This document shows positions 1-39,601 of a DNA stretch of 64,000 nucleotides, piece by piece. A program made the position numbers and the translations under genes. Source of the DNA: Thermoguttaceae bacterium (GTDB lineage: Bacteria; Planctomycetota; Planctomycetia; Pirellulales; Thermoguttaceae); the NCBI GenBank assembly GCA_963677085.2, contig CAXXFH010000006.1:43862-107861 (forward strand). Reading direction: 5' to 3'. How positions within the stretch are numbered: position 1 is the first letter of the stretch; every line of letters starts with the position of its first letter. The notes under the pieces are model-generated. The model was not told the origin of the DNA. It made no database searches and saw nothing but the letters and a program-made list of their open reading frames with translations.

Positions 1-291
1 GCCAGGTCGCTGGCGACCTTCTTTCCCGGCACAGACGCCACTCGTGACGCCGTCGCACCCCATCCGTCCTGGCGGAAAGACCTTGTGGGTCGACTCGTAG
101 TTGGCCAGCGCCAAGCCGAGTTGCTTGAGATTATTTACACACTGCGATCGGCGCGCCGCCTCTCGGGCGGTCTGTACCGCCGGCAGAAGCAGTGCAATAA
201 GAATGCCGATAATGGCGATCACTACCAGCAATTCGACCAGGGTGAAACCGCGACGCGGTCCACGGAAGATATCCTGCCCCAGATAACCCAT
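1..291 (-). CDS. DUF1559-type protein with prepilin-type N-terminal cleavage/methylation domain (5' part only; runs off the window)
   Basis: Reverse translation from ATG (rc of 289-291) reads [68 protein letters not shown]. This is the classic [17 protein letters not shown] prepilin motif plus the DUF1559 continuation. It is absent from the ORF track because it is truncated by the window edge. Confidence 0.8.
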
Positions 292-730
292 GGTCAACGA
301 TCCTGCTTGCTTGGGTTACCAGCTATCGAAATTCGCGCGAGCATCACACACAGAGGCCTTCCTGCTGAGCGAAAAGCCGTGGGAAAGCTCCTATGGCGAC
401 TTCCTCGCAAAACGCCACACCTCTTCTCTCAGAACCGTTGCCATCCAGTATATTTTTGAAATGCGTGAAATGCCAGCCGAATGCACTTCACGCTCCAGGC
501 AGAAACACAAGATCTACTCGCCCGATCTTCAAGCTTGGCCCAAGACAAGAAATCTTCCAGGATTCTCAGCCAAAAACGCGTCTTCGAGACGATTTGGCTT
601 GCTCGACGGCCCTCAAGAGGGGGTACTTGCTGTTGACCCACAAACGACCGCCAGCTATTCTCCCTCGTTACTCCCGACGACCCCTCCAAGGATAGAACGA
701 AAAACAACCACCAATTTGCCGGGCCGTACT

Positions 731-795
731 CGGCCACGGCCCTCGGGCTCCGCCTTGAAAACGGTAAGTTGTTTCTTGGGCCGTCCTAAAACGGA
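731..795. repeat. Hairpin repeat family E (GACGGCCCTCGGG...GCCTTGAAAACGGTAAGT...GGGCCGTCC)
   Basis: Near-identical copy at 4172-4230 and a partial reverse copy at about 24955-24990. The arms gacggccc/gggccgtc are complementary. Confidence 0.6.
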
Positions 796-898
796 CATCG
801 GTTGGCGTCGTCGCGGAGTTCGTTCCCGCGGATCGGCTCCTCGTAGATAATGATCACATCGAGGCGCGGATCCCTACGAATTGGACCCCAAAAAAGCC

Positions 899-2209
899 AT
901 GGACTGGGCGTTACTTTTGTTCTTCCCCCTGGCCGGTCTGGCGATTCTCCAGAGCCTGCTGTTGGTGTTGCAGACCTGGGAACACCGCCGGTATGCGCGG
1001 AGCTGCATGAACCGCAAGCGCCAGGGGTATCCGAAAGGACGGGCCGCCGTCTTCGTGCCCTGCAAGGGACTCGATGTCGACCTGACGGAGAACCTCCGCG
1101 CCTTGATGATCCAAGACTATAACGACTACGAGGTGAACTTCATTGTCGAGCGTTCCGATGATCCGGCCTGCGAAGCCATTCAGCGGGTCATGGCCGACCA
1201 TCCTTTGGTGCCCTCGCGGATGCTAATTGCCGGCCGGGCGATCAATTGTGGGCAAAAGGTCCACAACCTGCGTGTGGCCACGGCCCACCTGGCTTCCGAC
1301 GTGAAGTATCTCGTGTTCGTCGATTCCGACGCCGGGCCCCGTTCTTCCTGGCTGCGAACGCTCGTGCTTCGTCTCTGGGGTCGCAACGGGGGCGCCGTGA
1401 CCGGCTACCGCTGGTTCATCCCTACCCGCCCGACCGTCGCCAACCTGCTGTTGTACAGCTTGAACTCGGTGATCATGTCGTTGTTCGGCCGTCGCAGCCA
1501 CCATCTGGTCTGGGGTGGCTCATGGGGTATCCGCCGCGAGTTGTTCGACCGGCTCAAACTCCGCGATGCCTGGGCAGGTACGCTTAGCGACGATCTGGTG
1601 GCCACGCAGGTGTTGCGCAAGGCCAAGGTAACCGTGGCATTCGAACCCGGCTGCGTTGTGGCCTCGCCGTGCGACTACTCGTTGGGCGACCTGTTCGACT
1701 TCATTCGCCGCCAGTACCTTGTGACACGTTTCTATACGCCGTGGTGGTGGGGATTTGGAATCGCCGTCTTGTCGGCTAGCAATCTCTTGTTTCTGGCCAA
1801 CGTGGGATTGCTCGGTGTCGGGTTGCGTTCCGACGCGGCCTGGTCGTGGGCGTCGTTGGCAATCTGCGTCATGCTCTATGGGCTGATGGCCGCGCGGGGC
1901 ATGTTGCGGCAGTCGCTCGTGAAGACCTACTTTCCAGAACATTACCAATCGCTGCGCGCGGCCCGATGGTTCGACATCGTGGCCAACCCGCTGGGTAGCT
2001 GGACACACTGGCTGGGTGTGGGCGGTTCGCTATTCGGGCAACACATCACGTGGCGATCGATCTGCTATCGCGTTTCTCGCGGTGGACAGGTGCAAATTGT
2101 CCGCCGCGACGAACATTTCGATCCGGAAGCCACCCAGGTGATCGCTGTCGATGAAACCGTCCTCTGCCTGCCGCAATCCAAGGGAGTGTCGCTGAAGAAG
2201 GCCGGATAG
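899..2209 (+). CDS. Membrane glycosyltransferase, GT2/GT21 (ceramide glucosyltransferase / HpnI-like)
   Basis: ORF 881-2209; the first ATG is at 899 (a TTG at 881 is also possible). Evidence is an N-terminal TM segment, a D-x-D-type core (KYLVFVDSDAGP) and QDYNDYEVNFIVERSDD, typical of the glucosylceramide-synthase-like GT fold, plus C-terminal TM helices. Confidence 0.7.
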   Translation: MDWALLLFFPLAGLAILQSLLLVLQTWEHRRYARSCMNRKRQGYPKGRAAVFVPCKGLDVDLTENLRALMIQDYNDYEVNFIVERSDDPACEAIQRVMADHPLVPSRMLIAGRAINCGQKVHNLRVATAHLASDVKYLVFVDSDAGPRSSWLRTLVLRLWGRNGGAVTGYRWFIPTRPTVANLLLYSLNSVIMSLFGRRSHHLVWGGSWGIRRELFDRLKLRDAWAGTLSDDLVATQVLRKAKVTVAFEPGCVVASPCDYSLGDLFDFIRRQYLVTRFYTPWWWGFGIAVLSASNLLFLANVGLLGVGLRSDAAWSWASLAICVMLYGLMAARGMLRQSLVKTYFPEHYQSLRAARWFDIVANPLGSWTHWLGVGGSLFGQHITWRSICYRVSRGGQVQIVRRDEHFDPEATQVIAVDETVLCLPQSKGVSLKKAG

Positions 2210-2230
2210 CTCAAGAAAATCGCTGGTATT

Positions 2231-2370
2231 ACTGGTTCCCACACTTTGCGTGGGAACTCGCGGTCGGACGCTTCGCGTCCCGGCCCCACCGGTGAACACC
2301 GTTTGACACTTCTCGACACAAAGCGTCGAACGCCCACATTCCCACGCAAAGCGTGGGAACGAGAAGAAAC
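2231..2370 (+). repeat. Composite ~135-bp four-hairpin repeat (copy 1)
   Basis: Architecture is GGTTCCCAC-loop-GTGGGAAC, GGACGCTTCGCGTCC, TCGAC-loop-GTCGA, TTCCCACGCAAAGCGTGGGAACGAGAA. A co-linear, same-orientation copy lies at 16739-16878. Confidence 0.75.
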
Positions 2371-2418
2371 GAACTGACCACTGACAACTGTCCATTGACC
2401 ACTACCCAATAAGCACTC

Positions 2419-3915
2419 ATGCACGTTGTTCTCTGGGATACGAACCAACTCGATGCTTCCAAAGACTTTGCCGGAGGATTCGGCGTCGGAAAATACCCCG
2501 GCCACGGCGGCGTACGGGGGAAGCTCATTCGCTGGTTCTACACCCGGGATCGACGTCCCGTGGCCCTGCTGTTTGCCCATCTCGCGGCCGCGTTCAACCG
2601 CCTGGGCCATCGGGTGGAGTATGCTGTCGACCGCGTGCCTCGCGAGGCCGACATGGTGATTTTCTCCCCGTCGCTGATCACCCTCGACCTGGAAAAGCGG
2701 CGGATGGCCGAGGTGCTCAAGCGGCTTCCCGGCGTGCGGGTGCTGGTCGTCGGGCTGGTGGCATCCGTCATGCCCGAGGCCTTCGAAGGTCTCGACGTCA
2801 CCGTAGTCAAGGGCGAGGCCGAGCAGCTCTTCTGGCGACTGGACGAGGTGCTGGCACGGCCCGGTACCGCCGTGCAGCTCGGCACGATCGAAGACCTCGA
2901 CCGCCTGCCGCTGCCCGACTGGTCGCCGTTTGCGCCGAAAAATTTCCGTATCGGTTACGATTTCTGGAAGTTTCCCACCGCGTTGATCCAAGCCAGCCGC
3001 GGTTGCACGTTTCACTGCAACTATTGTCCCTACATCGTTCTCGAAAACGCCACGCGGATGCGCAGCCCCGAGGCCGTGGTCGATGAAATCCACCATGGCA
3101 TTCGCCACTGGGGTTTTCGATCGTTCAAGTTCCGCGATCCGCTGTTCGGGCTGAAGCGTCCGTTGGTCTACGAACTGGCCGAACGCATCGGCCGGTTGCC
3201 GCGGAAGATTCAGTTTTCGATCGAAACACGCATTGAACTCGTTCCGCCCGAGATCTTGCGCCTGCTGAAACGCGTCGGGCTGACGAGCATTACCGTGGGT
3301 ATCGAATCGCCCAACGACGAGATGCTCAAGCGCTACCACCGGGCGCCGGTCCACGACGACAAACAACGCGAGTTCGTCGACACGTGCCGCCAATTGGGCA
3401 TTCGTACGGTGGCCGGGTTTCTCATCGGTTTTCCCGAAGACACGGGCCGTTCGATTCGCCGGGTGCTCGATTACGCCAAGCTGGTCAACCCGACGTTTGC
3501 CAACTTCAACGTCGTCACACCTTACCCGGGCACGGCCTTCTACGACGAAGTCCACGACCAGATCGCCGACCACGATTTGAGCCACTACACGGTTTACACG
3601 CCGGTGATGAAGTACGAAAACCTCAGCGGCGAGCAGATGCAAGAGTGGCACGCGAAGTGTTTTCGGCAGTTTTACTTCCGTTTCCCGTATCTGCGCGACA
3701 ATGCCCACCTCCTCTGGCCCGTATTGCGGCGGTTGGGCGTGGGGCGAGGCGGCCGCACCGCGTCGTCGCCGGAAGCCCTCGGCCAGTCGGCCCACGACGG
3801 AGTGCCCAAGCCACTCAGCGGCCAAGAGCTTCTGCGCAAAAAGGGTCTGCGGACCGACGGCCCCCATCTGCAACCCGGTTCCCGCGACCAGGCCGAAAAC
3901 CGCCGGACGGGGTGA
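2419..3915 (+). CDS. B12-binding-domain radical SAM enzyme (class B; HpnJ-like)
   Basis: CxxxCxxC motif (RGCTFHCNYCPY). The N-terminal Rossmann-like B12-binding region is followed by a radical SAM core (SITVGIESPNDEML, GFLIGFPEDT). Confidence 0.85.
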   Translation: MHVVLWDTNQLDASKDFAGGFGVGKYPGHGGVRGKLIRWFYTRDRRPVALLFAHLAAAFNRLGHRVEYAVDRVPREADMVIFSPSLITLDLEKRRMAEVLKRLPGVRVLVVGLVASVMPEAFEGLDVTVVKGEAEQLFWRLDEVLARPGTAVQLGTIEDLDRLPLPDWSPFAPKNFRIGYDFWKFPTALIQASRGCTFHCNYCPYIVLENATRMRSPEAVVDEIHHGIRHWGFRSFKFRDPLFGLKRPLVYELAERIGRLPRKIQFSIETRIELVPPEILRLLKRVGLTSITVGIESPNDEMLKRYHRAPVHDDKQREFVDTCRQLGIRTVAGFLIGFPEDTGRSIRRVLDYAKLVNPTFANFNVVTPYPGTAFYDEVHDQIADHDLSHYTVYTPVMKYENLSGEQMQEWHAKCFRQFYFRFPYLRDNAHLLWPVLRRLGVGRGGRTASSPEALGQSAHDGVPKPLSGQELLRKKGLRTDGPHLQPGSRDQAENRRTG

Positions 3916-4171
3916 GCCTGTCCGACAGCGGCAGACCGCAAAGCGGCCGTTGCCCGTCAAAGCCAACTCAACACGTCGCGCCGTCCGGCATAACCAGCAC
4001 AAGCTGGCCGTACTTCACGCCGAATAGGGTGGTACGCTAAGTGGGGGTTTCACGCCACTGGCCGCGTGTCGCTCCTCTCTTGTTCGGCTGCCATCCTCTC
4101 ACCGGCCTCTCGGTTTTCTCGCCCCTTCGGATCGATCGACAAATAACCTGCCGATTCGCCGGGCCGTGCGT

Positions 4172-4230
4172 CGCGACGGCCCTCGGGTTTTGCCTTGGAA
4201 AACGGTAAGTCGTTTTTCGGGCCGTCCTTA
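4172..4230. repeat. Hairpin repeat family E (copy 2)
   Basis: cgcgacggccctcgggttttgccttggaaaacggtaagtcgtttttcgggccgtcctta matches 731-795. Confidence 0.6.
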
Positions 4231-4412
4231 CCATCCGATGGCCGCTTCGTGTTTGCCTGGCCCCGATTCCTGAACTAGAGTTTCGATGGCAAGTTGCGAA
4301 GTTGTCGTCGGGGCACAGCTCATCAGAGGCTCCCCCCCCCGACCATGGTAGGATCCACGTCGTTTCCCACTGAAAACACACTCCTCGCACAAGCCGTGTT
4401 TCCTCTTCCTCC

Positions 4413-5558
4413 GTGTTGGTCGTTTACGGGATTGCCGTGTCAGCCGATCTGTCAACACAACTTGCTGGTTGGAACGATGTCCGGCACACGCTCGATGAAA
4501 TTCGGGCGTGCCAAGGCGAATACGATTCGTTCTTCTCCGGCGTGTTCGATCACCTGCAATCCCTTTCGGGCGATCTCTCGCAACACAAGTCGCACTGGGT
4601 GGCCCAACGCCATCAGCAGGCGGCCTCGATGGTTGAGCAGTCGCAGTCGGTCGCCCAGCAGAGCGACGATCGCTGGGAACGATTGCTCGAGGAAACCCGA
4701 TCGCAGCACGCCGAGATGTGCGACGCGCAAAAGGTCGTGCGCCAGCAGGTCGAACGTCTAGCCGCCATCGCCGCCGAGTTGGCCGAGGCCCACCGCCAGG
4801 ACGCCGAGCAGGGCAGGTCCGGCCACGACAGTGCCAACCACGACAGCGCCTCGGAGGAATCGTTGCGGCAATTGCTCGACGAGTTTCGCCAGCAGCAACA
4901 ACAATGGCGCAAGTTACACGAGCAGGCCGCCTCGAACACAACCGAGGCTTTCGGCCAGGAGCTGGCGGAAGTTCGCCGTGAACTCGCCGCCGCGCAACAG
5001 GCGCTACTCGAACGTTTCGAACAGCTTCAAGCGGCCCAGGCCAAAACAACCGGCAAACCGGCCGCCGCTTCGGCGATCGACACCGAACTACGCAAACGTC
5101 TCGACGAAATCCATCGCCTGCAACTCGAGTGGTCGCAGTCGGCTCCCGCAGCCGCGGCCGACGACGATCCCCTACGACAGCAACTTCAGGAGATGACCAC
5201 CCAGCAGGCGGCCTTAGATCAAGAACGGGCGTCGCTGGAAATCGAGTTGGAGTCGGTCCGTGGCCGAGCAGCCGAACTGGCCGAGTCGTTGGCCGATGAG
5301 AAACGCCAAACGCGTCGCCACCAAGAAGAATTCGCCGAAGAACTTAAACGCATGCGCGGGCTGTTGGAACTGATGTCGTATCGGATCAGCGAAACCGCGC
5401 CGGCCCCGGCTACACCCGTCCAAGCAACCCCGACCACGGCAGGCGCCGCTGCGGGTACTACGGCCGACAACGGTGCCGATCCAGTACTCGACTCCGTGAT
5501 GGCGCAGTTCGAGATGCTCCAACGCGATCTGGCCCGACGCCGCAATACCAAGGGATGA
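4413..5558 (+). CDS. Hypothetical Gln/Glu/Ala-rich coiled-coil protein
   Basis: Long ORF with heptad-like charged low-complexity sequence (QQLQEMTTQQAALDQERASLEIELESVRGRAAELAESLADEKRQ). The start is uncertain (GTG at 4413; the first in-frame ATG is about 70 codons in). No recognisable catalytic motif. Confidence 0.5.
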   Translation: MLVVYGIAVSADLSTQLAGWNDVRHTLDEIRACQGEYDSFFSGVFDHLQSLSGDLSQHKSHWVAQRHQQAASMVEQSQSVAQQSDDRWERLLEETRSQHAEMCDAQKVVRQQVERLAAIAAELAEAHRQDAEQGRSGHDSANHDSASEESLRQLLDEFRQQQQQWRKLHEQAASNTTEAFGQELAEVRRELAAAQQALLERFEQLQAAQAKTTGKPAAASAIDTELRKRLDEIHRLQLEWSQSAPAAAADDDPLRQQLQEMTTQQAALDQERASLEIELESVRGRAAELAESLADEKRQTRRHQEEFAEELKRMRGLLELMSYRISETAPAPATPVQATPTTAGAAAGTTADNGADPVLDSVMAQFEMLQRDLARRRNTKG

Positions 5559-5771
5559 CCGGAAACACAACGGGAGAATGCTATAAACAATAGGGTAGCC
5601 GTTCATGGCCGTTGTTTTTTTCGACAACTATTGGGGCCTGCATTGCTTGCGGAACGAGGGCGACCAACGGGAGCCCGGTTCGCGGGGACAAAACGCAACG
5701 AAATGTTCCACAATTAACCTCGGAATCAATAATAGCATAGCGCACCTTCAATTCACACATCGGAGAAGACC

Positions 5772-7139
5772 ATGGGCTCACGTTGCCGCATCGTGGTCCT
5801 GAGTACGATTCTGTTATTCAGCCTGATTAATCTCGGTATTGGCTGCTGGTACGTTCAACCGATTTTGGCGGCGTCCGGGGCAATGGGATGTTGCTACCTG
5901 GCCTTGCGCGTGGCGCGGCTCAGACGCACTTCGTTGGGCATCAACCAATCCCAAACGTCGGACGATTCGGCGACTTCGTCCCCGACGGTGGTTCGACCTG
6001 CCCAGCGCGAACCGGTCGATCCCAACGATACCGAGGCGTTGGTCAATCAGTTGCTCGAGCAGGGCCGCTACGCGCTGCTGCTGCGTCCACAAATCGCCAA
6101 CACGCTGGACGATGTTCGTTTCGGCCGGGTGCTGGACGCCCTGCAAGACGGTGCCGCCCTGGTGCCGGAGGGCGAAGTCGTGTTGGGCGGCGTCGACGCC
6201 GCATTGGACGACGGCCACCTCACACCCGACGAGATAATCGCTACCCAGGGACGCGTGGTGAAAGTCCGAGGGCTTTTTCTCGACCGCTACCCGGTGACGA
6301 ACGTCCAGTATTACGAATTCGTGGCCGCCGGAGGTTACCAGCAGATGTCGCTTTGGGACAAGGGGATTTGGCCGGCAGTTCTCGACATGGTCGACAGCAC
6401 CGGCGTACCAGGTCCGAAGTACTGGCAATATGGCTGCTTTGCCCCCGGCCGGGAGCAACACCCCGTGGTAGGAGTGAGTTGGTACGAGGCCTGTGCCTAC
6501 GCCCGATGGGTCGGCAAGCGGCTGCCCACCGACGCGGAATGGGTAAAAGCCGGCAGTTGGCCGGTCACCCTTTCCGAAACCAACCGGTCGCAACGGCGCT
6601 ATCCGTGGGGCGACACCATGGATCGTCGCAAAGCCAACCTCTGGGGCTCGGGCACCGATGATACCGTGCCGGTGCAGGAATATGCCGACGGCGGCAGTGT
6701 GGGTGGTGTTTCCCAACTAATCGGAAACGTCTGGGAATGGACCTCGAACAACTTCTCGCCCGTCGACCCGTATGGCAACCATTATCAAGTCGGTAATCCG
6801 ATGAAAAGTATCCGCGGAGGGGCCTTCGACACCTATTTCGATAACCAAGCCACCTGCCAATTTCAAAGTGGAGAAAACCCGTTGAGTCGCCGTCACAATA
6901 TTGGCTTCCGTTGCGCGGTGGGTGTGTGCGACTTGCTGTTGGCGCAAAGTGGACGGCCGGCAGACGTGTCGGCAAACGTTGACACTCCGCCCGACGCCAG
7001 CGTTCCCTCCGACTCGAAGGCCCCCTCGGACACGGCCGAGGTGCAAGCCGACGTGGCAATCGCGCCGGCCGACACCACGGCAGCCGACATCACGGCGGCC
7101 GATGCCCAGGTTTCCAAGTCTGAAGAGGTGCCCGCATGA
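5772..7139 (+). CDS. Membrane-anchored FGE-sulfatase (SUMF1/EgtB/PvdO-type) domain protein with low-complexity C-terminal tail
   Basis: GGAGAAG RBS lies 4 nt upstream of the ATG. There are two N-terminal hydrophobic helices. FGE-domain hallmarks are LDRYPVTNVQYYEFV, HPVVGVSWYEACAYARWVGKRLPTDAEW, YPWGD, GNVWEWT, RGGAF and NIGFRC. Confidence 0.85.
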   Translation: MGSRCRIVVLSTILLFSLINLGIGCWYVQPILAASGAMGCCYLALRVARLRRTSLGINQSQTSDDSATSSPTVVRPAQREPVDPNDTEALVNQLLEQGRYALLLRPQIANTLDDVRFGRVLDALQDGAALVPEGEVVLGGVDAALDDGHLTPDEIIATQGRVVKVRGLFLDRYPVTNVQYYEFVAAGGYQQMSLWDKGIWPAVLDMVDSTGVPGPKYWQYGCFAPGREQHPVVGVSWYEACAYARWVGKRLPTDAEWVKAGSWPVTLSETNRSQRRYPWGDTMDRRKANLWGSGTDDTVPVQEYADGGSVGGVSQLIGNVWEWTSNNFSPVDPYGNHYQVGNPMKSIRGGAFDTYFDNQATCQFQSGENPLSRRHNIGFRCAVGVCDLLLAQSGRPADVSANVDTPPDASVPSDSKAPSDTAEVQADVAIAPADTTAADITAADAQVSKSEEVPA

Positions 7140-8095
7140 CAAAAAGCATGATTCAACCGCTGGAGTCGTGTCGGCTGATCCAATATGCGGTGCCGGTACC
7201 GTGTCACATTTGCGGGACCGACAACACGCTGGATTCCGAGTTTTGCAACCACTGTTTTGCGCCCATGGCGCTGGCCCATCAATCGTGCGGTCGAAAGACG
7301 CAACCCCAGATGTTGGCCGCGTTGGGAGCCAGCGGCGCGGGGAAAACGGTTTACTTGGGCATGCTGATCGACATGCTTTCGCGGCAGCCCGAACGTATGC
7401 AACTGCTCGCCCGGGGAGCGTTTTCCATCACCCTGCAACAGACCACGCTGGCGGCCTTGTCGCGCTGCGAATTTCCGCAGAAGACCCCCAACGAACCCGA
7501 CCGTTGGAATTGGGTACACTGCCAGATTCGCCGTCGCCAGCAACGTCAACCGTTGGAATTGATTATGCCCGACATGGCCGGCGAGGCCCTGTTGGAAGAG
7601 GTCGACCATCCGCACACGTTCCGTGTCGTGCGATCGTTTCTGCAAAAGTGTACCGGCGCGCTGGTGCTGATCGATACCATGCGGTTGGAGGAATCCTCGC
7701 AGGATCAGGACTATTTCACTCTGAAACTGTTGACCTACCTGAACGAACTGGACAACGACGACTCGGACGACACCCGCTGGCAGAAGTCGCTTTCCTGGAA
7801 GAACCGGCCGGTGGCGTTGGTCTTCAGCAAGGCCGACCACTCCGATCTTTGTTCGGACGATCCGGAGGGCTACGCCAAAACTCAAGCCCCGGCGTTGTGG
7901 CAGTTTTGCCAGGAACGGTTCCACCGCCATCGCTTCTTTGCCGCCAGTGTAGCCGGGACGTGCGTTTACCGCGAGTCGTTGACCGAAGGGCGCATGCAGG
8001 TGCCGCTGCGGATCGAGCCGCAAGGTGTCGTGGAGCCCTTCCAGTGGTTGCTCGAGGAACTCGACTCCCTTGCGGGAAAACGGCCGAAGCGTTGA
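7136..8095 (+). CDS. Zinc-ribbon + P-loop small GTPase-like protein
   Basis: The ATG overlaps the upstream stop (ATGA at 7136-7139). N-terminal CxxC...CxxC (CHICGTDNTLDSEFCNHC). Walker A GASGAGKT (nt 7325-7348), DxxG (MPDMAGE) and an NKxD-like motif (FSKAD). Confidence 0.8.
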   Translation: MTKSMIQPLESCRLIQYAVPVPCHICGTDNTLDSEFCNHCFAPMALAHQSCGRKTQPQMLAALGASGAGKTVYLGMLIDMLSRQPERMQLLARGAFSITLQQTTLAALSRCEFPQKTPNEPDRWNWVHCQIRRRQQRQPLELIMPDMAGEALLEEVDHPHTFRVVRSFLQKCTGALVLIDTMRLEESSQDQDYFTLKLLTYLNELDNDDSDDTRWQKSLSWKNRPVALVFSKADHSDLCSDDPEGYAKTQAPALWQFCQERFHRHRFFAASVAGTCVYRESLTEGRMQVPLRIEPQGVVEPFQWLLEELDSLAGKRPKR

Positions 8096-8237
8096 ATTTG
8101 CGTGACACGTCAGCTATTGACGGCTGCCTAGCCAATGAGCGGAAGGCGACCAGCGGGAGCTTGGATTTCCGGGCTATCGGTTTCCAGAAATGATCATTCC
8201 CAATGCGGACATCAATAAATGAAGAACGTGTGTAATG

Positions 8238-8447
8238 ACTCAAACTGAAAACAGAAGGAAGCCGCAGATGAACACAGATACACGCAGATGACGAAAACGA
8301 CTTGGAAACGTGGATTGTCTGGTCGATCACGCCGTGAAGGCGATGCTTTCCAAAAGCCGCTCCACGCCAGATAGTCCGTGCGATGCTATCTGCGTTCATT
8401 TGCGTCCATCTGCGGCTCCAATGTTGGAATCATTTTCAGTTTGAGTA
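8238..8447. repeat. Long imperfect hairpin repeat (family G; GCCGCAGATGAAC..CAGAT arms)
   Basis: Left arm actcaaactgaaaac...gccgcagatgaacacagatacacgcagatg (8238-8291) is complementary to right arm ctatctgcgttcatttgcgtccatctgcggc...ttttcagtttgagt (8387-8447). Confidence 0.6.
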
Positions 8448-8600
8448 ATAAGGGAAGAGGGAAAAGAAGCTGCCACACGTGTTTTTCCCTCTTTCTCTTT
8501 CCCATTTTTCCTTCTTACACCAAGGAGTGGGGAAACGTTTGAATTGACGACTTCCTGCTCCAGATGGCTGAATAGTTGCGAATTGCGGAAAAACCGGAAA
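8445..8600 (+). repeat. Dispersed repeat family F (copy A)
   Basis: gtaataagggaagagggaaaagaagc...ttttccctctttctctttccc...ttccttcttacaccaag...cagatggctgaatagttgcg is co-linear with 25011-25160. A sub-module also occurs at 42064-42155. Confidence 0.6.
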
Positions 8601-8843
8601 AACCGGCCCTGTCGCGCTTGCGTTTCGCCGCAAGGTGGGTCGGGAAAATTCCCTCGCATGGGGTTCGAAAATGCTAGAGTTGGGGAACATCCCACCCGTT
8701 TTCCCGCCATGTTTGCCTGAACTGTCCGCCGCGTTTGCCAAGCAACCTCCGGCATTCGCGATACTCCCCTAGCCATCGTCGGTTCCCTCGTCCAGGCGTG
8801 GGAACGCATTGCCCCTGCCGATAGAACACGAACCAGTCGACGC

Positions 8844-10355
8844 ATGTCACACATCGAACAAGCAGTATTCACCTCGGCGGAAACGGATCGTTCCTTAGGT
8901 TACCAAGTGGTAGGTCGGAGTCCCGGACTCCGCGAGGAAGACGCCCAGGCGTTGGCCATTTGGGGGCCTTCACACGACTCGCTGCTCGATTTGAGCCCCG
9001 AAGCGGAGAGCTACAACTTCCATCCACTGCCCAGCGGCGCGTTTTGTGTGTCGCGCACGACACCGGCCGGCTGGGAGTATAGCGGTCGCGGTGGTCATCG
9101 AGTTTACACTCAATGCCTGATCGTGCAGCCGGAACTCTTGGCCCGCTTCGCCAACAATCCGTTTGCCTTGCTTCGTGCCGCGCTGGCATCCGGGATGTTG
9201 GAGGTTCACGAACACGTACCGAGCCGTCTCGATCCACTGCAATTAAGCGGTCGCGCCTCACCGGTCGACCAATCGCTACTGGCCCGACTGGCCGCCAATC
9301 CAGGAAGCCAACGGATGGCCAATCTGGTGCAGGCCGCTTTGGACCTCATGCAAACCGACGCGGGCACCGCTCGATTGGCCGTAGCCGGTTCTCCTTCGGC
9401 CGCCCAACTGCTGGCCGGCCTGTTCAACTGCCTGCCGGTGGAAAGCCGCACGGCGTTTTCGTTTTGCACGGGCTTGAAGTATTCGTCGCGACGGCCGTTT
9501 CGGATTCAGGCCCTCTCCGACGATCCGGCCGAACGCCGCTGGGTGGCACATCAGCCGAACGTTACCGTGGTGGAATTGTACCACGATTCGCCCACCGAGC
9601 CGTTGCCCTGGGAAGGTTGGGCGCAACTGATCAATCGGGTGTTGGCCTCCGGACGAACCACGTTTCTGGCGACTCAACTCTCGAAGCGTCGTTTCGATCT
9701 CACGCCCGACGACTTGGCGGCCCTGGGTCTGCAATTGCTCGAGGATTTCGAGGCCTCGGCATTGCGTCACGACCATGGCGATTCAGACCTGACAGAGACG
9801 ACCTCCGACGAGGTGACTTCGGCCGAAAGCGATCTGGATCGGCCGTTTGTCGACCCGGTCGACATGCTCGCGGACCCCACCGACCTCAACACCCAGCCGA
9901 AAACGCTGGATACGACCGACGATACGGCGCGGCCGGGCGGGGCCTCACCCGACTATCAACAGGCCCATGCGGCGCATCAGCAGTTCGCGAAAAGCACCTC
10001 TTCGGCCATCCCATCGTCGGGCACCGGATCGTCGGCTAAAGCTCCATCGCGCGTGGTTGCCCCGTCGAAAAATTTAGGGACCGCCTCGCCGCAAGTGTTG
10101 GAAAAACTGGAGTTGCTCGACGACCTGGTCTACGAGGCGCTTAGCGGCCAAACCACGGCCTTGAATCGGCTTGAAGTGCTTTGGCCCGAGATTCGCAGCA
10201 AATTGGACGACGAGTTGCTTGCCGAGTCGCGCGAACAGTATTTGCAATACGCGTTGTCGATCTGGGAAAACTGCGTCAACGACTCAGGCGTTCGCGCCCC
10301 AGCGCGTGCCGTGCAAGCCCTCGACGTACTGTGCGTGCTGTTCGACGAAGTATAG
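8844..10355 (+). CDS. Hypothetical 503-aa protein; N-terminus resembles GTPase-associated protein 1 (GAP1-N-type) domains
   Basis: Long ORF with good coding appearance. N-terminus is MSHIEQAVFTSAETDRSLGYQVVGRSPGL. The middle is acidic and Ser/Thr-rich low complexity, and the C-terminal module is helical. The family assignment is from memory of the M..Q..YTS....G[FY]Q..A.SPG pattern and was not searched. Confidence 0.6.
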   Translation: MSHIEQAVFTSAETDRSLGYQVVGRSPGLREEDAQALAIWGPSHDSLLDLSPEAESYNFHPLPSGAFCVSRTTPAGWEYSGRGGHRVYTQCLIVQPELLARFANNPFALLRAALASGMLEVHEHVPSRLDPLQLSGRASPVDQSLLARLAANPGSQRMANLVQAALDLMQTDAGTARLAVAGSPSAAQLLAGLFNCLPVESRTAFSFCTGLKYSSRRPFRIQALSDDPAERRWVAHQPNVTVVELYHDSPTEPLPWEGWAQLINRVLASGRTTFLATQLSKRRFDLTPDDLAALGLQLLEDFEASALRHDHGDSDLTETTSDEVTSAESDLDRPFVDPVDMLADPTDLNTQPKTLDTTDDTARPGGASPDYQQAHAAHQQFAKSTSSAIPSSGTGSSAKAPSRVVAPSKNLGTASPQVLEKLELLDDLVYEALSGQTTALNRLEVLWPEIRSKLDDELLAESREQYLQYALSIWENCVNDSGVRAPARAVQALDVLCVLFDEV

Positions 10356-10379
10356 CCACGCTTCTGTTGTAGGCCATTT

Positions 10380-10538
10380 CACTGTGTAGGCTATGCTTCA
10401 GCATAGCGCGGCTCACGCCGCAACCAATTGGTGCTACCGCACCCACTTCCACTCGGTCCCAAGCTCCAGCTTGGGACCGCACATCCGCGAAGCATTGCTA
10501 GGGCTGTCGCGCTATGCTGAAGCATAGCCTACACAGTG
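10380..10538. mobile_element. MITE-like element with 31-bp perfect terminal inverted repeats
   Basis: cactgtgtaggctatgcttcagcatagcgcg (10380-10410) is the exact reverse complement of cgcgctatgctgaagcatagcctacacagtg (10508-10538). The 97-bp interior carries a family-C half site and a GGTCCCAAGCTCCAGCTTGGGACC hairpin. Confidence 0.6.
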
Positions 10539-10748
10539 GTGCTGGCAATGCACTCACGTCTCTCGCCCCTCGTCTCAACCTCGCCCCTCGTCTCAACCTC
10601 GCCCGCCAAATCTAACGCCTTTCTTGCAGATCGCTAACCCGGCGTTCATGGCCTTTGGCGATAATTCAGTTAGAGGACTTCGGGAAGACACTCGCTTTGG
10701 TGAAACCTTCTCCCGAAGCAGTCGACCACTCCGAGGACGATTCCCTTG

Positions 10749-13247
10749 ATGTACACGACCCAGAAGACGTCGAAGGCCGATCTTCACGTCCACAGCAAAC
10801 ACTCCGACCGGCCGAGCGAGTGGTTTCTTCGCCGCATCGGATCGCCCGAGTGTTTCGTCGAGCCGCTGGAAATCTACCATCGCGCACGACAGCGGAGGAT
10901 GGACTTCGTGACCATCTCCGATCACAACTGCATCCGCGGGGCGTTGGAAATCGCCCATCTGCCGGGCACATTCATCTCGAACGAGGTGACCACCTACTTC
11001 CCCGAGGACGGCTGCAAGCTCCACGTGCTGGTCAGCGGAATCACGGAAACCGAGTTCCGCGACATCCAGGAAAATCGCTCCAACGTTTACGACTTGCAGA
11101 AGTATCTTGTCGAGCAAGACATCATCCACAGCGTGGCCCATCCGCTGTTTCGCATCAACAGCCGGCTGACGATCGACCACGTGGAAAAGCTGCTCGTGCT
11201 GTTCAAGCGGTTCGAGGCGATCAACGGCACCCGCGACGTCCGAGCGGCCGAACTGGTCGACGCCATCTTCGGCCACCTCACGCCCGAGATGATTGAAGCG
11301 ATGGCCAATCGCCACGGTCTCGCACCGGTCGGTCCTGAACCTTGGGTAAAACACTTCACCGGCGGCAGCGACGACCACAGCGGAGCCTACACGGCCGCCG
11401 CCCATACGATGACGCCGCCGTGCGACGACGTCGACGAGTTCCTCGGTCATCTGCGCCGCGGCGAGCACGGGCCGGCCGGCACCTCGGGTGGCAGCGTGAT
11501 GATGGGACACTGCCTGTACCACATTGCTTACAGCTACTACAAAGACCGTTTCGTCCGCGGCACCGGCGACGGCAAACCCACCATCATCGGCGAGCTGTTC
11601 AAAAAACTGCTTCAACAGGCCGAGCAACAACGTCCGCCGGCCAGTCTGGGCCAACGGTTAAAGGACGCCGCGGTGAGTTTCGTTTGGGCGCGTCAGAAGA
11701 ATCGTCTCAGCGAAGTTGATCGGGAGTTGGTCGACGAGTTTTCCCAACTATTCAACGTCGAAGAACAGCGCGACGTGGCCTCGCCGCCGATGGACGACCG
11801 GCGCACGTTCTACACGGCTTGCCGCATCAGCCACGTATTGGGTTACAGCTTCCTGCGTCGGTTCGAGAAGTACGCCCGCCAGGGCCGGCTGATGGAAAGT
11901 TTGCAGACGGTGGCCTCCTTGGGGCCGGTCGCTCTGAGCATGGCTCCGTACTTGGCTGCGTTCTCCACCCAACACAAGGATGAGCCGTTTCTCCAGGCCG
12001 TGGCAGAACACTTTCCCACGGCGCACCACCTACGGCAAAAGAGCGATCGCAAGGCCTGGGTGACCGACACGTTTGCCGACGTCAACGGCGTGACGCGAAC
12101 CATTCACTCGTTGGCAGCCATGGCCAAGAAGACGGGCCGGAAGATGACCGTGGTAACCTGTCTCGACGAACTGCCGACCACGAAGCTCGACGTCAAGAAT
12201 TTCCGCCCGGTGGGTACCTTCCAGTTGCCGGAATACGAGTCGCTGCGGTTGGCCTTTCCCCCGTTTCTTGAGGTGATCGAGTATCTCGAACGGCAACGGT
12301 TCAGCGAGGTGATCATTTCCACACCCGGCCCTATGGGACTAACGGCCCTGGCCGCGGCACGCCTTTTGGGTTTGCGCACCACGGGCATCTACCACACCGA
12401 CTTCCCGCAGTTCGTCCGCTATCTGACGGGCGACGACGACATGGAGGAACTTACCTGGAAGTACATGCTGTGGTTCTACGAGCAAACCGACCGCATCCTG
12501 GCCCCCAGCGAGTATTATCGCAAGACGCTCGCTTACCGTGGCTTCGATCCCACCAAGCTGCAACTGATGGTTCGCGGCGTGGATACCGCGTGGTTCACGC
12601 TGGAGAAACGCGACCCGGCATTCTACCGTCGCTGGGGTCTCGACGATCGGCTGACATTCGTCTACGCGGGCCGTATCTCCTGCGAAAAGAACCTCCACCT
12701 GCTGGTCGACGCGTTCCGCTCGCTGATCGAACGCGACGTGACAGCCCAGTTGGCAATTGTGGGCGACGGCCCTTATGTGGAAGAACTTCAGAAGCAGTCT
12801 CAAGGGTTACCCGTCTTTTTCACGGGCTTTCTCGACGGCGAAGATCTGGCCACTGCCTATGCCAGCGCCGATGTGATGGTGTTTCCCTCGACCACCGACA
12901 CGTTTGGCAACGCCGTGCTCGAAGCCCAAGCGAGCGGACTGCCCGCGATCGTCGCCGACCGGGGCGGTCCTCCCGACATCGTCGGCCCACACGAATCGGG
13001 CCTGATCGTGAATCTCAACGAACCGAACGCGCTGGCCGATGCCATGCAACAGTTGGCATGCGACGAAACCATGCGGAACGAAATGGGACGGCGCGCGTTG
13101 CGCAACGCGGCCGAACGTCGTTGGGAAGTGGTGCTCGAAGAATTCTGGAACGGCGCGGAGAACGATCCCGCCACATCCGAACGGCTCGTCTATCGTCAGC
13201 CGAACGAGCACGTCACGGCGGGCCTGGTTTCTCTCGATACCGCCTAG
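10749..13247 (+). CDS. PHP-domain phosphoesterase fused to GT4 (group 1) glycosyltransferase
   Basis: N-terminus ADLHVHSKHSDRPSEW ... TISDHN ... HPLF is the PHP metal-binding pattern. C-terminus VYAGRISCEKNLHLL ... VFPSTTDTFGNAVLEAQASGLPAIVADRGGPPDIV is the GT4 E-x7-E region. Confidence 0.85.
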   Translation: MYTTQKTSKADLHVHSKHSDRPSEWFLRRIGSPECFVEPLEIYHRARQRRMDFVTISDHNCIRGALEIAHLPGTFISNEVTTYFPEDGCKLHVLVSGITETEFRDIQENRSNVYDLQKYLVEQDIIHSVAHPLFRINSRLTIDHVEKLLVLFKRFEAINGTRDVRAAELVDAIFGHLTPEMIEAMANRHGLAPVGPEPWVKHFTGGSDDHSGAYTAAAHTMTPPCDDVDEFLGHLRRGEHGPAGTSGGSVMMGHCLYHIAYSYYKDRFVRGTGDGKPTIIGELFKKLLQQAEQQRPPASLGQRLKDAAVSFVWARQKNRLSEVDRELVDEFSQLFNVEEQRDVASPPMDDRRTFYTACRISHVLGYSFLRRFEKYARQGRLMESLQTVASLGPVALSMAPYLAAFSTQHKDEPFLQAVAEHFPTAHHLRQKSDRKAWVTDTFADVNGVTRTIHSLAAMAKKTGRKMTVVTCLDELPTTKLDVKNFRPVGTFQLPEYESLRLAFPPFLEVIEYLERQRFSEVIISTPGPMGLTALAAARLLGLRTTGIYHTDFPQFVRYLTGDDDMEELTWKYMLWFYEQTDRILAPSEYYRKTLAYRGFDPTKLQLMVRGVDTAWFTLEKRDPAFYRRWGLDDRLTFVYAGRISCEKNLHLLVDAFRSLIERDVTAQLAIVGDGPYVEELQKQSQGLPVFFTGFLDGEDLATAYASADVMVFPSTTDTFGNAVLEAQASGLPAIVADRGGPPDIVGPHESGLIVNLNEPNALADAMQQLACDETMRNEMGRRALRNAAERRWEVVLEEFWNGAENDPATSERLVYRQPNEHVTAGLVSLDTA

Positions 13248-13290
13248 GGCGGCAGGGCCGCCAACCAAACGGCACTACCGCACCCAATCG
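13247..13290. repeat. Repeat family C (GGGCGGCAGGGCCGCCAACCAAAC(C)GG..CTACCGCACCCA)
   Basis: Related copies at 32919-32966 (same orientation), 47291-47323 and 49101-49140 (reverse), 61018-61059, and a half site at 10418-10445. Confidence 0.6.
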
Positions 13291-13311
13291 ACAAAGCGCC
13301 AGCACGACCTG

Positions 13312-13719
13312 TTACGGCACGATCTTGAAAACTTGATCGCCCGCTGACACTGGTTCGATCGTTTTGATTCCCACCACTTGCCCCACGGTAGCTTCGTCGA
13401 CCGGTTGGGCGTCGATTTGCATCGATTCGACCGCCTGAGTCAGGTCGACCGAGGTGCCGCAAATACGAATCGTGTCGGTGGCGCGCAAGGTGCCATCGGC
13501 AATTTCAACGGCCGCGATTTCGATACGTGGGAAGTAGTGTGTTACCCTGCCAAGGCGTACTTCAGCCATTGGTCCGTCCTGCCCCGAAAAACACGGACCG
13601 GTCAACATGTGCCCACGGCGTAGGTCTACCCAACTGCCGCAGTCGCACAGGACCCGGTGTCCAAACTGAAAGAGCGTTACATCGAAACCCATCCCGCAAC
13701 GCGGGCAGGTGATCGCCAT
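13312..13719 (-). CDS. Hypothetical zinc-ribbon protein with C-terminal small beta-barrel-like region
   Basis: N-terminal CPRCG...CDCG zinc ribbon. It follows lutC co-directionally. Function unknown. Confidence 0.55.
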   Translation of the reverse strand: MAITCPRCGMGFDVTLFQFGHRVLCDCGSWVDLRRGHMLTGPCFSGQDGPMAEVRLGRVTHYFPRIEIAAVEIADGTLRATDTIRICGTSVDLTQAVESMQIDAQPVDEATVGQVVGIKTIEPVSAGDQVFKIVP

Positions 13720-13950
13720 GCCCCAACTCCTCCCTCAATTCCCTGATTCTAACTTCGTAGCCAGGGATGGGTAAAGCGAGAAATCGTGCTCTATCACGGC
13801 GACAACACCGACGGGCTTGCGTCTGTACCGCTTTAGGAAGTAGAACGGCTGGTGGAACCCTCACCAGCCGTTATCGGGAGTCGCCGTTCGTCTTTCAACC
13901 AGATAAACTAGTGCTAAAACACCACGCTACATTTACCCCAGTTCACCAGT

Positions 13951-14601
13951 TCAGTCGACCAGTAAGACGATCAACCGCTTGGGACCGTGAACGCCGAGGA
14001 TCAAGATCTTCTCGATGTCGGCCGTACGACTTGGGCCGGTAATGATCACCGTTTCGCCACGCTGTTGGGCGTCGGCCGCCTGTTTGGCAATCGTTTCCCA
14101 TGCAGCCGGCAGATGTTCGGCCAGGGTTTCGGCCTGGGCCAAAACCACCGAGACCGGCGGCAGATAGCACAACAAGCGTTCTTCGGCCGTGTTGCACGAG
14201 ACGACACAACTGCCCGTATCGGCGAGAAGTTGATCGGCGGAAACCAGGCCGGCGGAAAGCTCGGCCATTGCCTTGGGGTCCCACCCGTCGTGTGCCCAAA
14301 CCACCTGATCCTCGGCCAACCCGGCCACCGCCGTACGGCAAACCGCATTGTCGACCGCACCCAGGCAGCTCCACTCAGACTGCCGAAACAATTCGGCCAG
14401 CCGGTCGGGCACTTCTTCCATCGAGCCGCATCGAACGACCTCGCCCGTAACGGCCGCAAGCTCGGCCAAAAAGCGTTCGACCATCGCTTCCCGCGACGGA
14501 TTGGTCCGCGGCCACACCTCGGGCACGGGCGGCCGTTTCACTTCCGGAGCGTGAGAAACCTCGCTACGAATCCGCGCCAATATTGCTTCGCGACTGTTCA
14601 T
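13951..14601 (-). CDS. lutC: Lactate utilisation protein C (LUD domain)
   Basis: LUD-domain-like sequence (MNSREAILARIRSE..., ...ITGPSRTADIEKILILGVHGPKRL) downstream of lutA and lutB. Confidence 0.8.
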   Translation of the reverse strand: MNSREAILARIRSEVSHAPEVKRPPVPEVWPRTNPSREAMVERFLAELAAVTGEVVRCGSMEEVPDRLAELFRQSEWSCLGAVDNAVCRTAVAGLAEDQVVWAHDGWDPKAMAELSAGLVSADQLLADTGSCVVSCNTAEERLLCYLPPVSVVLAQAETLAEHLPAAWETIAKQAADAQQRGETVIITGPSRTADIEKILILGVHGPKRLIVLLVD

Positions 14602-14655
14602 GATGCGCTTTCTTTTACACCGAATTCAGCCTTTGTCGCTCAACCACTACGGTTC

Positions 14656-14685
14656 TTTTGACAGGATAACAGGATTGACGGGATG
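14656..14685. repeat. Repeat family I arm (TTTTGACAGGATAACAGGATTGACGGGATG)
   Basis: Same arm sequence as at 15161-15180 and 59387-59408. The complementary arm is at 15238-15268. Confidence 0.65.
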
Positions 14686-14710
14686 AAAGAAGAATGGAAT
14701 CCCGCGAATT

Positions 14711-15097
14711 CTACTCCCGCAGCGGTGGATCGAGTATGCGTACCTTGCGTTTCACTTCCACTTTTTCCGGCCCAAAGTTTAGCAGCAGCCCAATATCCAA
14801 ATGAGTCGCAACGAGATAATTGACCAATTGAATCTCGTGGGCGATGGCAAGCTTACGAACGGATTTGAGTTCAACGATGATTCGTTGGTCGACAACAATG
14901 TCTGCTACGAACTCTCCGACCAATTCGTTGTGGTAATATACCTGGATTGGTTTCTGTTCTTCCATCTGCAGCCCGGCGTCGGCCAATTCGATCATCAAGC
15001 ATTTTTCGTACACTGACTCCAGAAACCCAAAACCCATCGTGTTATACACTCGATAAGCACATCCAATAATCTTCTGGGTTGTCTGCTCATGCAACAT
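14711..15097 (-). CDS. GxxExxY protein (PD-(D/E)XK nuclease-fold family)
   Basis: Diagnostic GFGFLESVYEKCL (G-x-x-E-x-x-Y) motif and ...DIVVDQRIIVELKSV... (D...E-x-K) core. Lower GC than its neighbours. Confidence 0.85.
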   Translation of the reverse strand: MLHEQTTQKIIGCAYRVYNTMGFGFLESVYEKCLMIELADAGLQMEEQKPIQVYYHNELVGEFVADIVVDQRIIVELKSVRKLAIAHEIQLVNYLVATHLDIGLLLNFGPEKVEVKRKVRILDPPLRE

Positions 15098-15160
15098 TTC
15101 TTCAACCGTCGCAGCCAGCTTCCGTCAACATTCCAACATGAACCATGCCTACGACATGTT

Positions 15161-15268
15161 TTTTGACAGGACAACAGGATTTCAAGGGTAAACACACCAC
15201 ACATCTCCCGCCAACAAACGTGTGGATCTTACAACACTATCCTGTCCATCTTGTTATCCTGTCAAAAG
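15161..15268. repeat. Repeat family I, complete inverted-repeat unit
   Basis: ttttgacaggacaacaggat ... atcctgtccatcttgttatcctgtcaaaag with an inner ccacac/gtgtgg hairpin. Confidence 0.65.
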
Positions 15269-15279
15269 AAAAACGCGCT

Positions 15280-16707: not shown

Positions 16708-16738
16708 AATCGAACCGATGTCGTTTTGGTTACGTTTT

Positions 16739-16878
16739 ACTGGTTTCCATGCTTCGCGTGGGAACCCACTGCCGGACGCTTCGCGCCGTTGTATTACCGA
16801 TGAAACATCTTCCACAACCCTCGACGCGAAGCGTCGAACCCTTGCGTTCCCACGTAAAACGTGGGAACGAGAAAACCC
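16739..16878 (+). repeat. Composite ~135-bp four-hairpin repeat (copy 2), in the lutA-lutB spacer
   Basis: Co-linear with 2231-2370: actggtttccatgcttcgcgtgggaac ... ggacgcttcgcg ... ctcgacgcgaagcgtcgaac ... gttcccacgtaaaacgtgggaacgagaaaa. Confidence 0.75.
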
Positions 16879-16907
16879 ACTAGTCCCTAGCCCCCGATCC
16901 CCAGCCC

Positions 16908-17681
16908 CTACTCAGCTACCAGCAGTTCCGCAATATGCTTACACTGGATATGCTTCGTGGCCGGGTTACGTCGCATGATGCCATCGACGTGCATCAGGCA
17001 ACTGATGTCCACGGAGGTCACCACGTCGGCCCCGCTCTTGATGATATTCTCGACCTTGGTTTGTCCCATGGCAACCGACGTGCCCGACATCTTCACGCTG
17101 AATGTCCCGCCGAAGCCGCAACATTCTTCGATGTTGGGCAATTCGTGGTACTCTAGATCACGGATATTCTTCAGCAACGAAAGCGGCTGCTCGAACAGGC
17201 CCAACTCGCGACGGCCGTGGCAACCGCTGTGCATGGTCACCTTGTGCGGGAAGCGGGCGCCCGTGTCGGTCACGCCCAGCACGTCGACCAGGAATTCGGT
17301 CAGTTCGAACACCCGGCGGCCGATTTCCACGACCCGGTCGTCGGGATCGACATGGCCGAAGAACACCCGGCACATCGCCGTGCAGGAGCCCGACGGACAG
17401 ACGACCCAGCGATGCTTCTCGAAGGCCTTGCAAAACTGGTGGATCACCCGCTTGGCTTCTTCCCAGTAGCCCGAGTTGAAGGCCGGCTGGCCGCAGCAGG
17501 TTTGCTCCTCGGGATAGACTACCGGAATACCGCGATCGGTCAGCAGTTTGGCCGTGGCTTCGGCGATATGAGGGTAGAACTGATCGATGTAGCAGGGGAT
17601 AAACAGCGCCACGGGCTCGCCCAATTGGTAGGCCGAGCCGTCCGGTTTCGGGGCATGTCCGTTCGAGCTGGATGCGTTCAT
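16908..17681 (-). CDS. lutA: Lactate utilisation protein A ((Fe-S) oxidoreductase, CCG domains)
   Basis: VALFIPCYIDQFYP, CCGQPAFNSGY and ECCGFGGTF are CCG-domain motifs typical of LutA/YkgE. ATG 17681 was preferred as the start; 17720 is possible. Confidence 0.9.
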   Translation of the reverse strand: MNASSSNGHAPKPDGSAYQLGEPVALFIPCYIDQFYPHIAEATAKLLTDRGIPVVYPEEQTCCGQPAFNSGYWEEAKRVIHQFCKAFEKHRWVVCPSGSCTAMCRVFFGHVDPDDRVVEIGRRVFELTEFLVDVLGVTDTGARFPHKVTMHSGCHGRRELGLFEQPLSLLKNIRDLEYHELPNIEECCGFGGTFSVKMSGTSVAMGQTKVENIIKSGADVVTSVDISCLMHVDGIMRRNPATKHIQCKHIAELLVAE

Positions 17682-39482: not shown

Positions 39483-39601
39483 ACAGTGAGCCTCTCGTCA
39501 ACGGCTTCTTGCCTGGCGCGATGCTGCCCGAACGCGTTTCGGCGGCTGTCTTCTCCGGTGCCCTGATTCTGGTAGCTCGTTTTTGCGATAGGGGTATTAC
39601 C

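Follow-up and report, generated by a model that had tools for sequence, protein, structure and literature searches.

DO-GTPase/GAP1 "GTPase-centric" systems were defined by Kaur, Burroughs, Iyer and Aravind (eLife 2020, PMC7159879), and the literature that we found on them is computational, with no experimental work among it. In the portions of that paper drawn on here, GAP1-N2 systems typically include a protein of rapidly evolving fibronectin type III (FNIII) repeats, some planctomycete GAP1-N2 systems carry effectors with an FGS domain (the formylglycine-generating enzyme (FGE)-sulfatase fold), and the FGS domains of vWA-MoxR systems are linked to diversity-generating retroelements (DGRs). 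The GTPase-centric neighborhoods are there called mobile, and the FGS protein is given the role of a variable effector (PMC7159879). Here we describe a locus from Thermoguttaceae bacterium (GenBank assembly GCA_963677085.2, contig CAXXFH010000006.1, positions 43,862 to 107,861 of the forward strand). This 64,000-nucleotide stretch is referred to below as the window, and coordinates are those of the window unless another contig is named. The subject is a gene at 5772..7139 (+ strand) encoding a 455-amino acid FGE-fold (FGS) protein. It has a transmembrane hairpin, a conserved helical linker and an acidic, Pro-rich tail, and its FGE-sulfatase domain lacks the catalytic Cys pair of FGE. It is a non-FGE member of the fold and probably a non-catalytic binding subunit, the membrane-anchored partner of a GTPase/GAP1 system.

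Judged by its domains, the locus belongs to the planctomycete FGS variant of these computationally described GTPase-centric systems. As in the system of Kaur et al., an FGE-sulfatase-fold protein is encoded in one operon with a zinc-ribbon DO-GTPase and with a GAP1 protein whose N-terminal domain is of the N2 type, and the GAP1-N2 is encoded downstream of the GTPase, as it also is in two contigs from relatives, L010 and L012. The planctomycete host, the membrane-proximal components and an FGS domain without catalytic FGE residues are likewise common to both. It differs in possessing one GTPase instead of two, and in a coiled-coil gene upstream, of which we found no mention in the portions of the Kaur et al. 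description drawn on here.

The flagged segment of the protein, IRGGAFDTYFDNQATCQFQSGENPLSRRHNIGFRCAV (residues 347-383; 6810..6920, + strand), replaces the loop that carries the copper-binding Cys pair in FGEs. A sequence-only reading of this DNA had proposed that the FGE-like domain lacks this pair within 6780-6930, an interval that contains the segment, and had given the canonical motif as C-H-x-S-Y-C-x-R-Y-R, which matches the canonical FGEs that we fetched from genomes. The absence was borne out by alignment with the Streptomyces coelicolor FGE using HMMER, and by a MAFFT alignment with nine canonical FGEs from Nonomuraea, Streptomyces, Cupriavidus, Rhizobiales and others. The same reading had named an alignment retaining both catalytic cysteines as counter-evidence; in the alignments that were run, neither is conserved. 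Against the solved S. coelicolor structure (2q17/6muj), the segment aligns to "RGGAF---DTYFDNQATCQFQSGENPLSRRHNIGFRCA". In the MAFFT alignment, the first catalytic Cys of the canonical enzymes aligns to Thr354, the second falls in a two-residue deletion between Asp357 and Asn358, and Cys362, the sole Cys of the segment, lies opposite the V/P/S/L residue immediately after R-Y-R. The position of Cys362 is, we assume, that of a structural disulfide cysteine in human SUMF1. The FGE-fold protein contains no copper-binding C-x4-C after RGG[SA], and the RYR motif is also missing.

To place this loss within the family and the fold, 120 listed database orthologs and 80 diverse PF03781 relatives from named genomes across bacteria were used. 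The segment contains C-x4-C in none of the 120 orthologs and a single Cys in 106 of them, and chance or sequencing error can therefore be dismissed as the cause of the loss. Among the diverse relatives, RGGS-x-x-C-H-x-S-Y-C-x-R-Y-R is found in 15 of 80, the carriers including Nonomuraea, Streptomyces, Cupriavidus, a Rhizobiales isolate, Fibrella and Phycisphaeraceae. The pair is missing from the other 65, so its loss is ordinary for the fold, and the rarity implied by the sequence-only reading was overstated. On these alignments, the absence of the Cys pair is a stable family trait and an ordinary one for the FGE fold.

The fold itself was assigned by Pfam, AlphaFold2 (AF2) and Foldseek, which together define an FGE-sulfatase/C-type-lectin-like domain at residues 130-382 (6159..6917, + strand). 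Pfam PF03781 matches these residues at 143.9 bits, against a cut-off of 23.3 (E 9e-42). An AF2 model of residues 81-396, for which diverse relatives were added to give an alignment of 105 sequences, has a mean predicted local distance difference test score (pLDDT) of 93.9 and a predicted template modeling score of 0.92; an earlier full-length run with 27 orthologs was poor, at a pLDDT of 57.7 overall and less than 50 in the C-terminal half of the domain. Foldseek places the FGE-like domain of EgtB first among the structures matching the model, followed by FGEs, CalU17, OvsA and ToxD, at E values of 1e-15 to 1e-20 and identities of 23-29%. Copper-dependent FGEs (SUMF1, S. coelicolor and T. curvata; 1y1e, 2q17/6muj and 6s07) have the same fold, with Foldseek E values of about 1e-16 to 1e-17 and 23-29% identity, and have in common with the FGE-fold protein the framework motifs SWYEA, LPT[DE]AEW, GNVWEW, RGG and GFRC. 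Unlike them, the FGE-fold protein has Thr in place of the first Cys, a deletion at the second and no RYR, adds an N-terminal membrane hairpin, a helical extension and an acidic tail, and has a GTPase system instead of sulfatases as its genomic partner. That an FGE fold can be non-catalytic and of the binding type has a precedent in SUMF2 (pFGE, 1y4j), the inactive human paralog, whose corresponding loop ("RGASWIDTADGSANHRARVTTRMGNTPDSASDNLGFRCA") is also without either catalytic cysteine. SUMF2 is a soluble eukaryotic protein described as resident in the endoplasmic reticulum, unlike the membrane-hairpin protein described here; it matches with an E value of 5.9e-14, is no nearer in sequence than the active FGEs, and has an unrelated loop sequence.

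Among PDB entries, EgtB (4x8b) and OvsA match best, EgtB with E values of 6e-25 in the sequence search and 1.6e-20 in the fold search, and source annotations in the family include "iron(II)-dependent oxidoreductase" and "SUMF1/EgtB/PvdO family nonheme iron enzyme", which might suggest an iron-dependent sulfoxide or selenoxide synthase of the EgtB/OvoA/SenA type. The C-terminal FGE-like domain of EgtB, OvsA and SenA (4x8b, 8u41 and 8k5i) is indeed the nearest solved relative, at 28% identity. However, the FGE-fold protein lacks the DinB iron-binding domain of these enzymes, and Pfam detects the FGE-sulfatase domain only, with neither DinB nor DinB_2. It scores far below the NCBIfam cut-offs: 112.6 bits against 360 for EgtB (TIGR03440), 90.7 against 420 for SenA (NF041186) and 52.1 against 400 for OvoA (TIGR04344). 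The ortholog alignment reveals no invariant His in the N-terminal helices (residues 81-127), and the region aligned to the longer, Tyr-rich insert of EgtB-type sequences is shorter here and variable within the family. A separate full-length EgtB-like gene is present elsewhere in the genome, at C4:5059050-5060420, and we regard an EgtB-type activity of the FGE-fold protein as highly improbable. The sequence-only reading had favored a binding or sensor FGE fold over a maturase, with an EgtB/PvdO-like variant as its alternative; the first part is supported, and the alternative is not supported as regards EgtB. The protein also scores below the curated cut-offs for type IX secretion ring lipoproteins of the PorK/GldK/GldJ type (GldK 38.2 bits against 350, GldJ 19.9 against 383).

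The orthologs are 52-67% identical overall, and the loop that replaces the catalytic loop of FGE is nearly invariant among them (AFDTYFDNQATCQFQSGE). Mapping of conserved residues along the linear sequence gave 53 positions at which the family is invariant and which are rare in the superfamily; 13 of these lie within residues 351-367, the densest such cluster in the protein. In the ortholog alignment, conservation within the FGE-fold family is greatest in the C-terminal region. The polar invariants of the loop are D353, T354, Y355, Q359, T361, C362, Q363 and S366. A near-invariant loop so rich in polar residues, and with an invariant Cys (Cys362), could instead be the active site of an enzyme with chemistry new to the FGE fold, whose product or modified target would be controlled by the GTPase/GAP1 switch or would signal to it; EgtB, OvsA, CalU17 and ToxD, which are near structural matches without the Cys pair, act in biosynthetic pathways. 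This is unlikely, although it deserves to be kept in mind: no metal-binding motif was recognized (the Cys pair, a His triad and a DinB domain are all missing), and there are no conserved biosynthetic genes near the module, whose neighbors vary among the relative contigs L010, L012 and L014.

The same conservation bears on the opposite idea, that the protein is a DGR target with a hypermutated C-terminal C-type-lectin surface recognizing changing ligands, as the association of the FGS domains of vWA-MoxR systems with DGRs (PMC7159879) might suggest. In this family, however, the C-terminal region is where conservation is highest, and no reverse transcriptase match was detected among the neighboring genes scanned. 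Nucleotides 6600-7139 have no second, template copy anywhere in the genome, and on that ground we reject the DGR reading, to which we attach next to no probability.

The sequence-only reading had also judged the FGE-fold protein less likely to be the maturase of the sulfatase encoded at 40283-41926 (- strand). This sulfatase is of the Cys type (C-F-P-S-R, SKCFPSRACLLTG), and its gene is on the opposite strand, 33 kb from that of the FGE-fold protein. The genome (8.5 Mb, 96% complete) contains 56 matches to the Pfam Sulfatase family PF00884, corresponding to approximately 50 genes, and seven PF03781 proteins, none of which has the Cys pair on direct inspection. The genome-wide search for a canonical FGE that the sequence-only reading had proposed was made in three ways: neither Pfam nor a six-frame regular expression for Cys-pair motifs found one, and tblastn with six canonical FGEs returned the same seven loci only. 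Three radical S-adenosylmethionine (SAM) maturases of the anaerobic sulfatase-maturating enzyme (anSME) type are encoded outside the window at C4:1869837-1871009, C4:69361-70509 and C4:4614267-4615514, and the three anSMEs score 455, 443 and 444 bits, above the TIGR03942 cut-off of 349. It is most likely that the approximately 50 sulfatases are matured by these three enzymes. The missing cysteines, the coupling to a GTPase, the 33-kb separation and the three anSMEs all agree with the conclusion that the FGE-fold protein does not mature the sulfatase.

A working aerobic FGE that matures the nearby sulfatase through non-canonical residues would have in its favor the FGE fold and the lack of a canonical FGE in a genome whose Cys-type-like sulfatases number about 50. 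However, both Cu(I) ligands are missing, one of them by deletion, the protein has no signal peptide, and its domain, coupled to a GTPase, would be cytoplasmic. One third of the order's genomes also lack the ortholog, as does the remainder of the phylum sample, and with three anSME maturases in the genome such an activity is very improbable. The top PF03781 match of the genome, G000:C6:176849-177970 (249.9 bits), is 43% identical to a canonical Nonomuraea FGE, has an N-terminal transmembrane segment and also lacks both catalytic cysteines (RGGSFLSPENFRPGHHVSTRWQRTPDFTSQHLGFRCVR); on its sequence, this protein is a near-canonical FGE whose copper site has been lost.

The N-terminus is predicted to form a two-helix membrane hairpin (approximately residues 7-47; 5790..5912, + strand), according to AF2 helices, ortholog hydrophobicity and charge pattern. 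In the full-length AF2 run the hairpin helices span residues 2-27 and 30-62 with pLDDT of 79-94, and a hydrophobic N-terminus is found in 116 of the 120 orthologs. In the ortholog alignment, Arg or Lys is found at both ends of the hairpin, and the loop between the helices is uncharged. By the positive-inside rule, this charge pattern would place both termini and the FGE-fold domain in the cytoplasm. Between hairpin and domain lies a helical extension specific to the family (residues 81-127; 6012..6152, + strand), seen both in the alignment invariants and in AF2. Its sequence, PVDPxDTxALVEQMLAQGRYALLLRPQIA, precedes the FGE-fold domain, with D83, P84, D86, R99, L102-104 and R105 invariant in the ortholog alignment. 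Residues 81-127 are rich in family-specific invariants and form confident AF2 helices when modeled jointly with the domain.

At the other end of the protein, an acidic and Pro-rich low-complexity tail, variable in length between orthologs, precedes a conserved C-terminal motif, which is EEVPA at the extreme C-terminus of the protein (7122..7136, + strand). The form EE[VIA]xx-COOH is found at the C-terminus of 98 of the 120 orthologs, with EEV at positions -5 to -3 in 82 and EEA or EEI in 16. This motif resembles the EEVD-type C-terminal peptides that are bound by tetratricopeptide repeat (TPR) domains. A TPR protein adjoins the module in relative contig L012; any link between it and the C-terminal motif is speculative.

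The FGE-fold protein gene is the second of a conserved four-gene module. The first gene encodes a 381-amino acid coiled-coil protein (4413..5558, + strand), which has no Pfam domain and gives only weak, SMC-like coiled-coil matches in profile searches. It possesses a conserved C-terminal helix, DPVLDSVMAQFEMLQRDLARRR, that is invariant across homologs at 37-44% identity, and a homolog is found directly upstream of the FGE-like gene in all four independent relative contigs compared for gene order (L010, L012, L013 and L014). The third gene encodes a 319-amino acid DO-GTPase with an N-terminal zinc ribbon (7136..8095, + strand). Its start overlaps the stop codon of the FGE-fold protein gene by 4 nucleotides (ATGA), and the two genes are translationally coupled. 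Pfam matches DO-GTPase1 (PF19975) at 59.4 bits and DO-GTPase2 (PF19993) at 43.1 bits, with a cut-off of 27, and residues 16-57 match double zinc ribbon (DZR) domains. The protein is 62-69% identical to the GTPases encoded next to the orthologs, among which the GxSGxGKT, PDMAGE and KAD motifs are invariant.

The fourth gene, identified by Pfam, encodes a 503-amino acid GAP1 protein of the N2 type (8844..10355, + strand), with a GAP1-N2 domain (PF20013) at 53.4 bits (cut-off 24) and a GAP1-M match at 23.5 bits, just below its cut-off of 24. The only DO-GTPase and the only GAP1-N2 of the genome are the module copies. Wherever the contig reaches, the order coiled-coil protein, FGE-like protein, DO-GTPase (with the 4-nucleotide overlap) and downstream gene is the same in the four relative contigs. 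The gene after the GTPase encodes GAP1-N2 in L010 and L012; in L013 and L014 it is truncated and has no family on record. Here, 750 bp (8096..8843) separate the GTPase gene from the GAP1 gene, compared with 80-160 bp in the relatives. This spacer is filled with dispersed repeats resembling miniature inverted-repeat transposable elements (MITEs): an element of about 210 bp at approximately 8238-8449, which has terminal inverted repeats, and one of about 105 bp at approximately 8115-8218. Because blastn of the spacer against its own genome gives 236 high-scoring segment pairs, MITE-like elements appear to have been inserted within the operon.

A PADLOC scan of five operon proteins gave no defense-system match except coiled-coil noise, PADLOC having no DO-GTPase or GAP1 model. 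Rfam has no match in or near the operon; its sole match is a flavin mononucleotide (FMN) riboswitch (RF00050, 113.9 bits) at 39316-39483 (+ strand). Upstream of the module, a family 2 glycosyltransferase (GT2) gene and a B12-binding radical-SAM gene are found at 881-3915 in the window and at L012:3994-6851. The pair is missing in L014, and the L010 contig begins too near the module to judge; it is local synteny outside the module. Downstream of the GAP1 gene, at 10746-13247, an 833-amino acid protein with a family 4 glycosyltransferase (GT4) C-terminal half (GT4-conflict, 28.7 bits against a cut-off of 26) is encoded, and it is not conserved beside the module in relatives.

To determine how the FGE-like and GTPase genes are distributed, we used samples of 151 genomes from the order and 201 from the phylum. 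In the order sample, the FGE-like gene is found in 97 genomes (approximately 65%), in one copy each and with 44-63% identity, and the GTPase in 98. The two genes are in the same genomes and at adjacent coordinates, with a single GTPase without an FGE-like partner, in genome G117. That GTPase is near the start of its contig, and an FGE-like gene ahead of it may have been lost to the contig boundary. In the phylum sample, there is no FGE-like match except in one genome of the same order. The similarity of the GTPases to the query is structured by taxonomic family, with an eta-squared of 0.74 compared with a maximum of 0.585 in 5,000 label shuffles, where eta-squared on family labels is a crude proxy for descent. 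Read through this crude proxy, the pattern fits a module that has descended mainly vertically and has been lost repeatedly. Whereas Kaur et al. describe a mobile neighborhood, similarity here tracks taxonomic family and the module was seen in one order only.

Because the catalytic residues are missing, we infer that the FGE-fold protein is a binding subunit, and its likeliest role would be that of a cytoplasm-facing subunit for a constant ligand. In the mechanism that we propose, the two-helix hairpin would tether the FGE-fold domain at the cytoplasmic face of the membrane, and the groove that accommodates the substrate peptide and copper in FGE would have been rebuilt as the invariant loop. 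The rebuilt loop may bind one constant ligand; the most plausible candidates are a conserved cellular molecule and a stretch of peptide belonging to a partner protein. Given such a tether and such a loop, the protein could localize the GTPase/GAP1 switch at the membrane, or feed a binding signal into or out of it. A broader proposal is that the module is a vertically inherited, order-specific membrane GTPase machine with a constant endogenous ligand and not an anti-invader "conflict" system; we hold this to be decidedly unlikely as it stands. The role that might follow from it, for example in membrane or envelope organization in a lineage lacking FtsZ, is offered with equally little confidence.

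Several points weigh against a non-catalytic binding subunit within a GTPase-centric system. The strictly invariant polar residues of the loop would equally suit an enzymatic site. The cytoplasmic orientation of the domain has the positive-inside rule as its sole basis. The binding role comes from what the sequence lacks, and no ligand, interaction or phenotype is reported for any DO-GTPase/GAP1 system. The FNIII-repeat protein typical of the GAP1-N2 systems of Kaur et al. was not found: there was no FNIII match in the open reading frames scanned at 290-18802, nor in the neighborhoods of L010, L012, L013 and L014. The FGE-fold protein is a conserved, single-copy and obligate neighbor of the GTPase, whereas Kaur et al. 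speak of a variable effector. Finally, a canonical FGE could formally lie in the missing 4% of the 96% complete assembly.

Some details of the family are new here. The FGE-like and GTPase genes are a single-copy, adjacent and co-occurring pair that is limited to one order in our samples. The loop replacing the FGE catalytic loop is, in the alignments, the most conserved and family-specific part of the protein. The likely cytoplasmic topology and the C-terminal EEVxA motif add more modest detail.

The significance of these results lies chiefly in the annotation of PF03781 proteins. In source records, members of the family described here are labeled, for example, "formylglycine-generating enzyme family protein" or "iron(II)-dependent oxidoreductase"; such labels are probably misleading, since none of the seven PF03781 proteins of the genome has the copper-binding cysteines and the three anSMEs are the likely maturases. 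Matches to PF03781 are routinely counted as "FGEs" in the sulfatase-rich bacteria of the Planctomycetes-Verrucomicrobia-Chlamydiae (PVC) group; "six encoded FGEs" have been cited for R. baltica, and paradoxical FGE domains have been noted in strict anaerobes (PMC6388578). Published PVC "FGE" counts based on PF03781 probably overstate the number of true FGEs. The invariant rebuilt groove provides a concrete site for mutation, and the four proteins of the module are a defined set for interaction tests. The published computational system is also refined, in that the FGS protein of this order has the behavior expected of a fixed core component.

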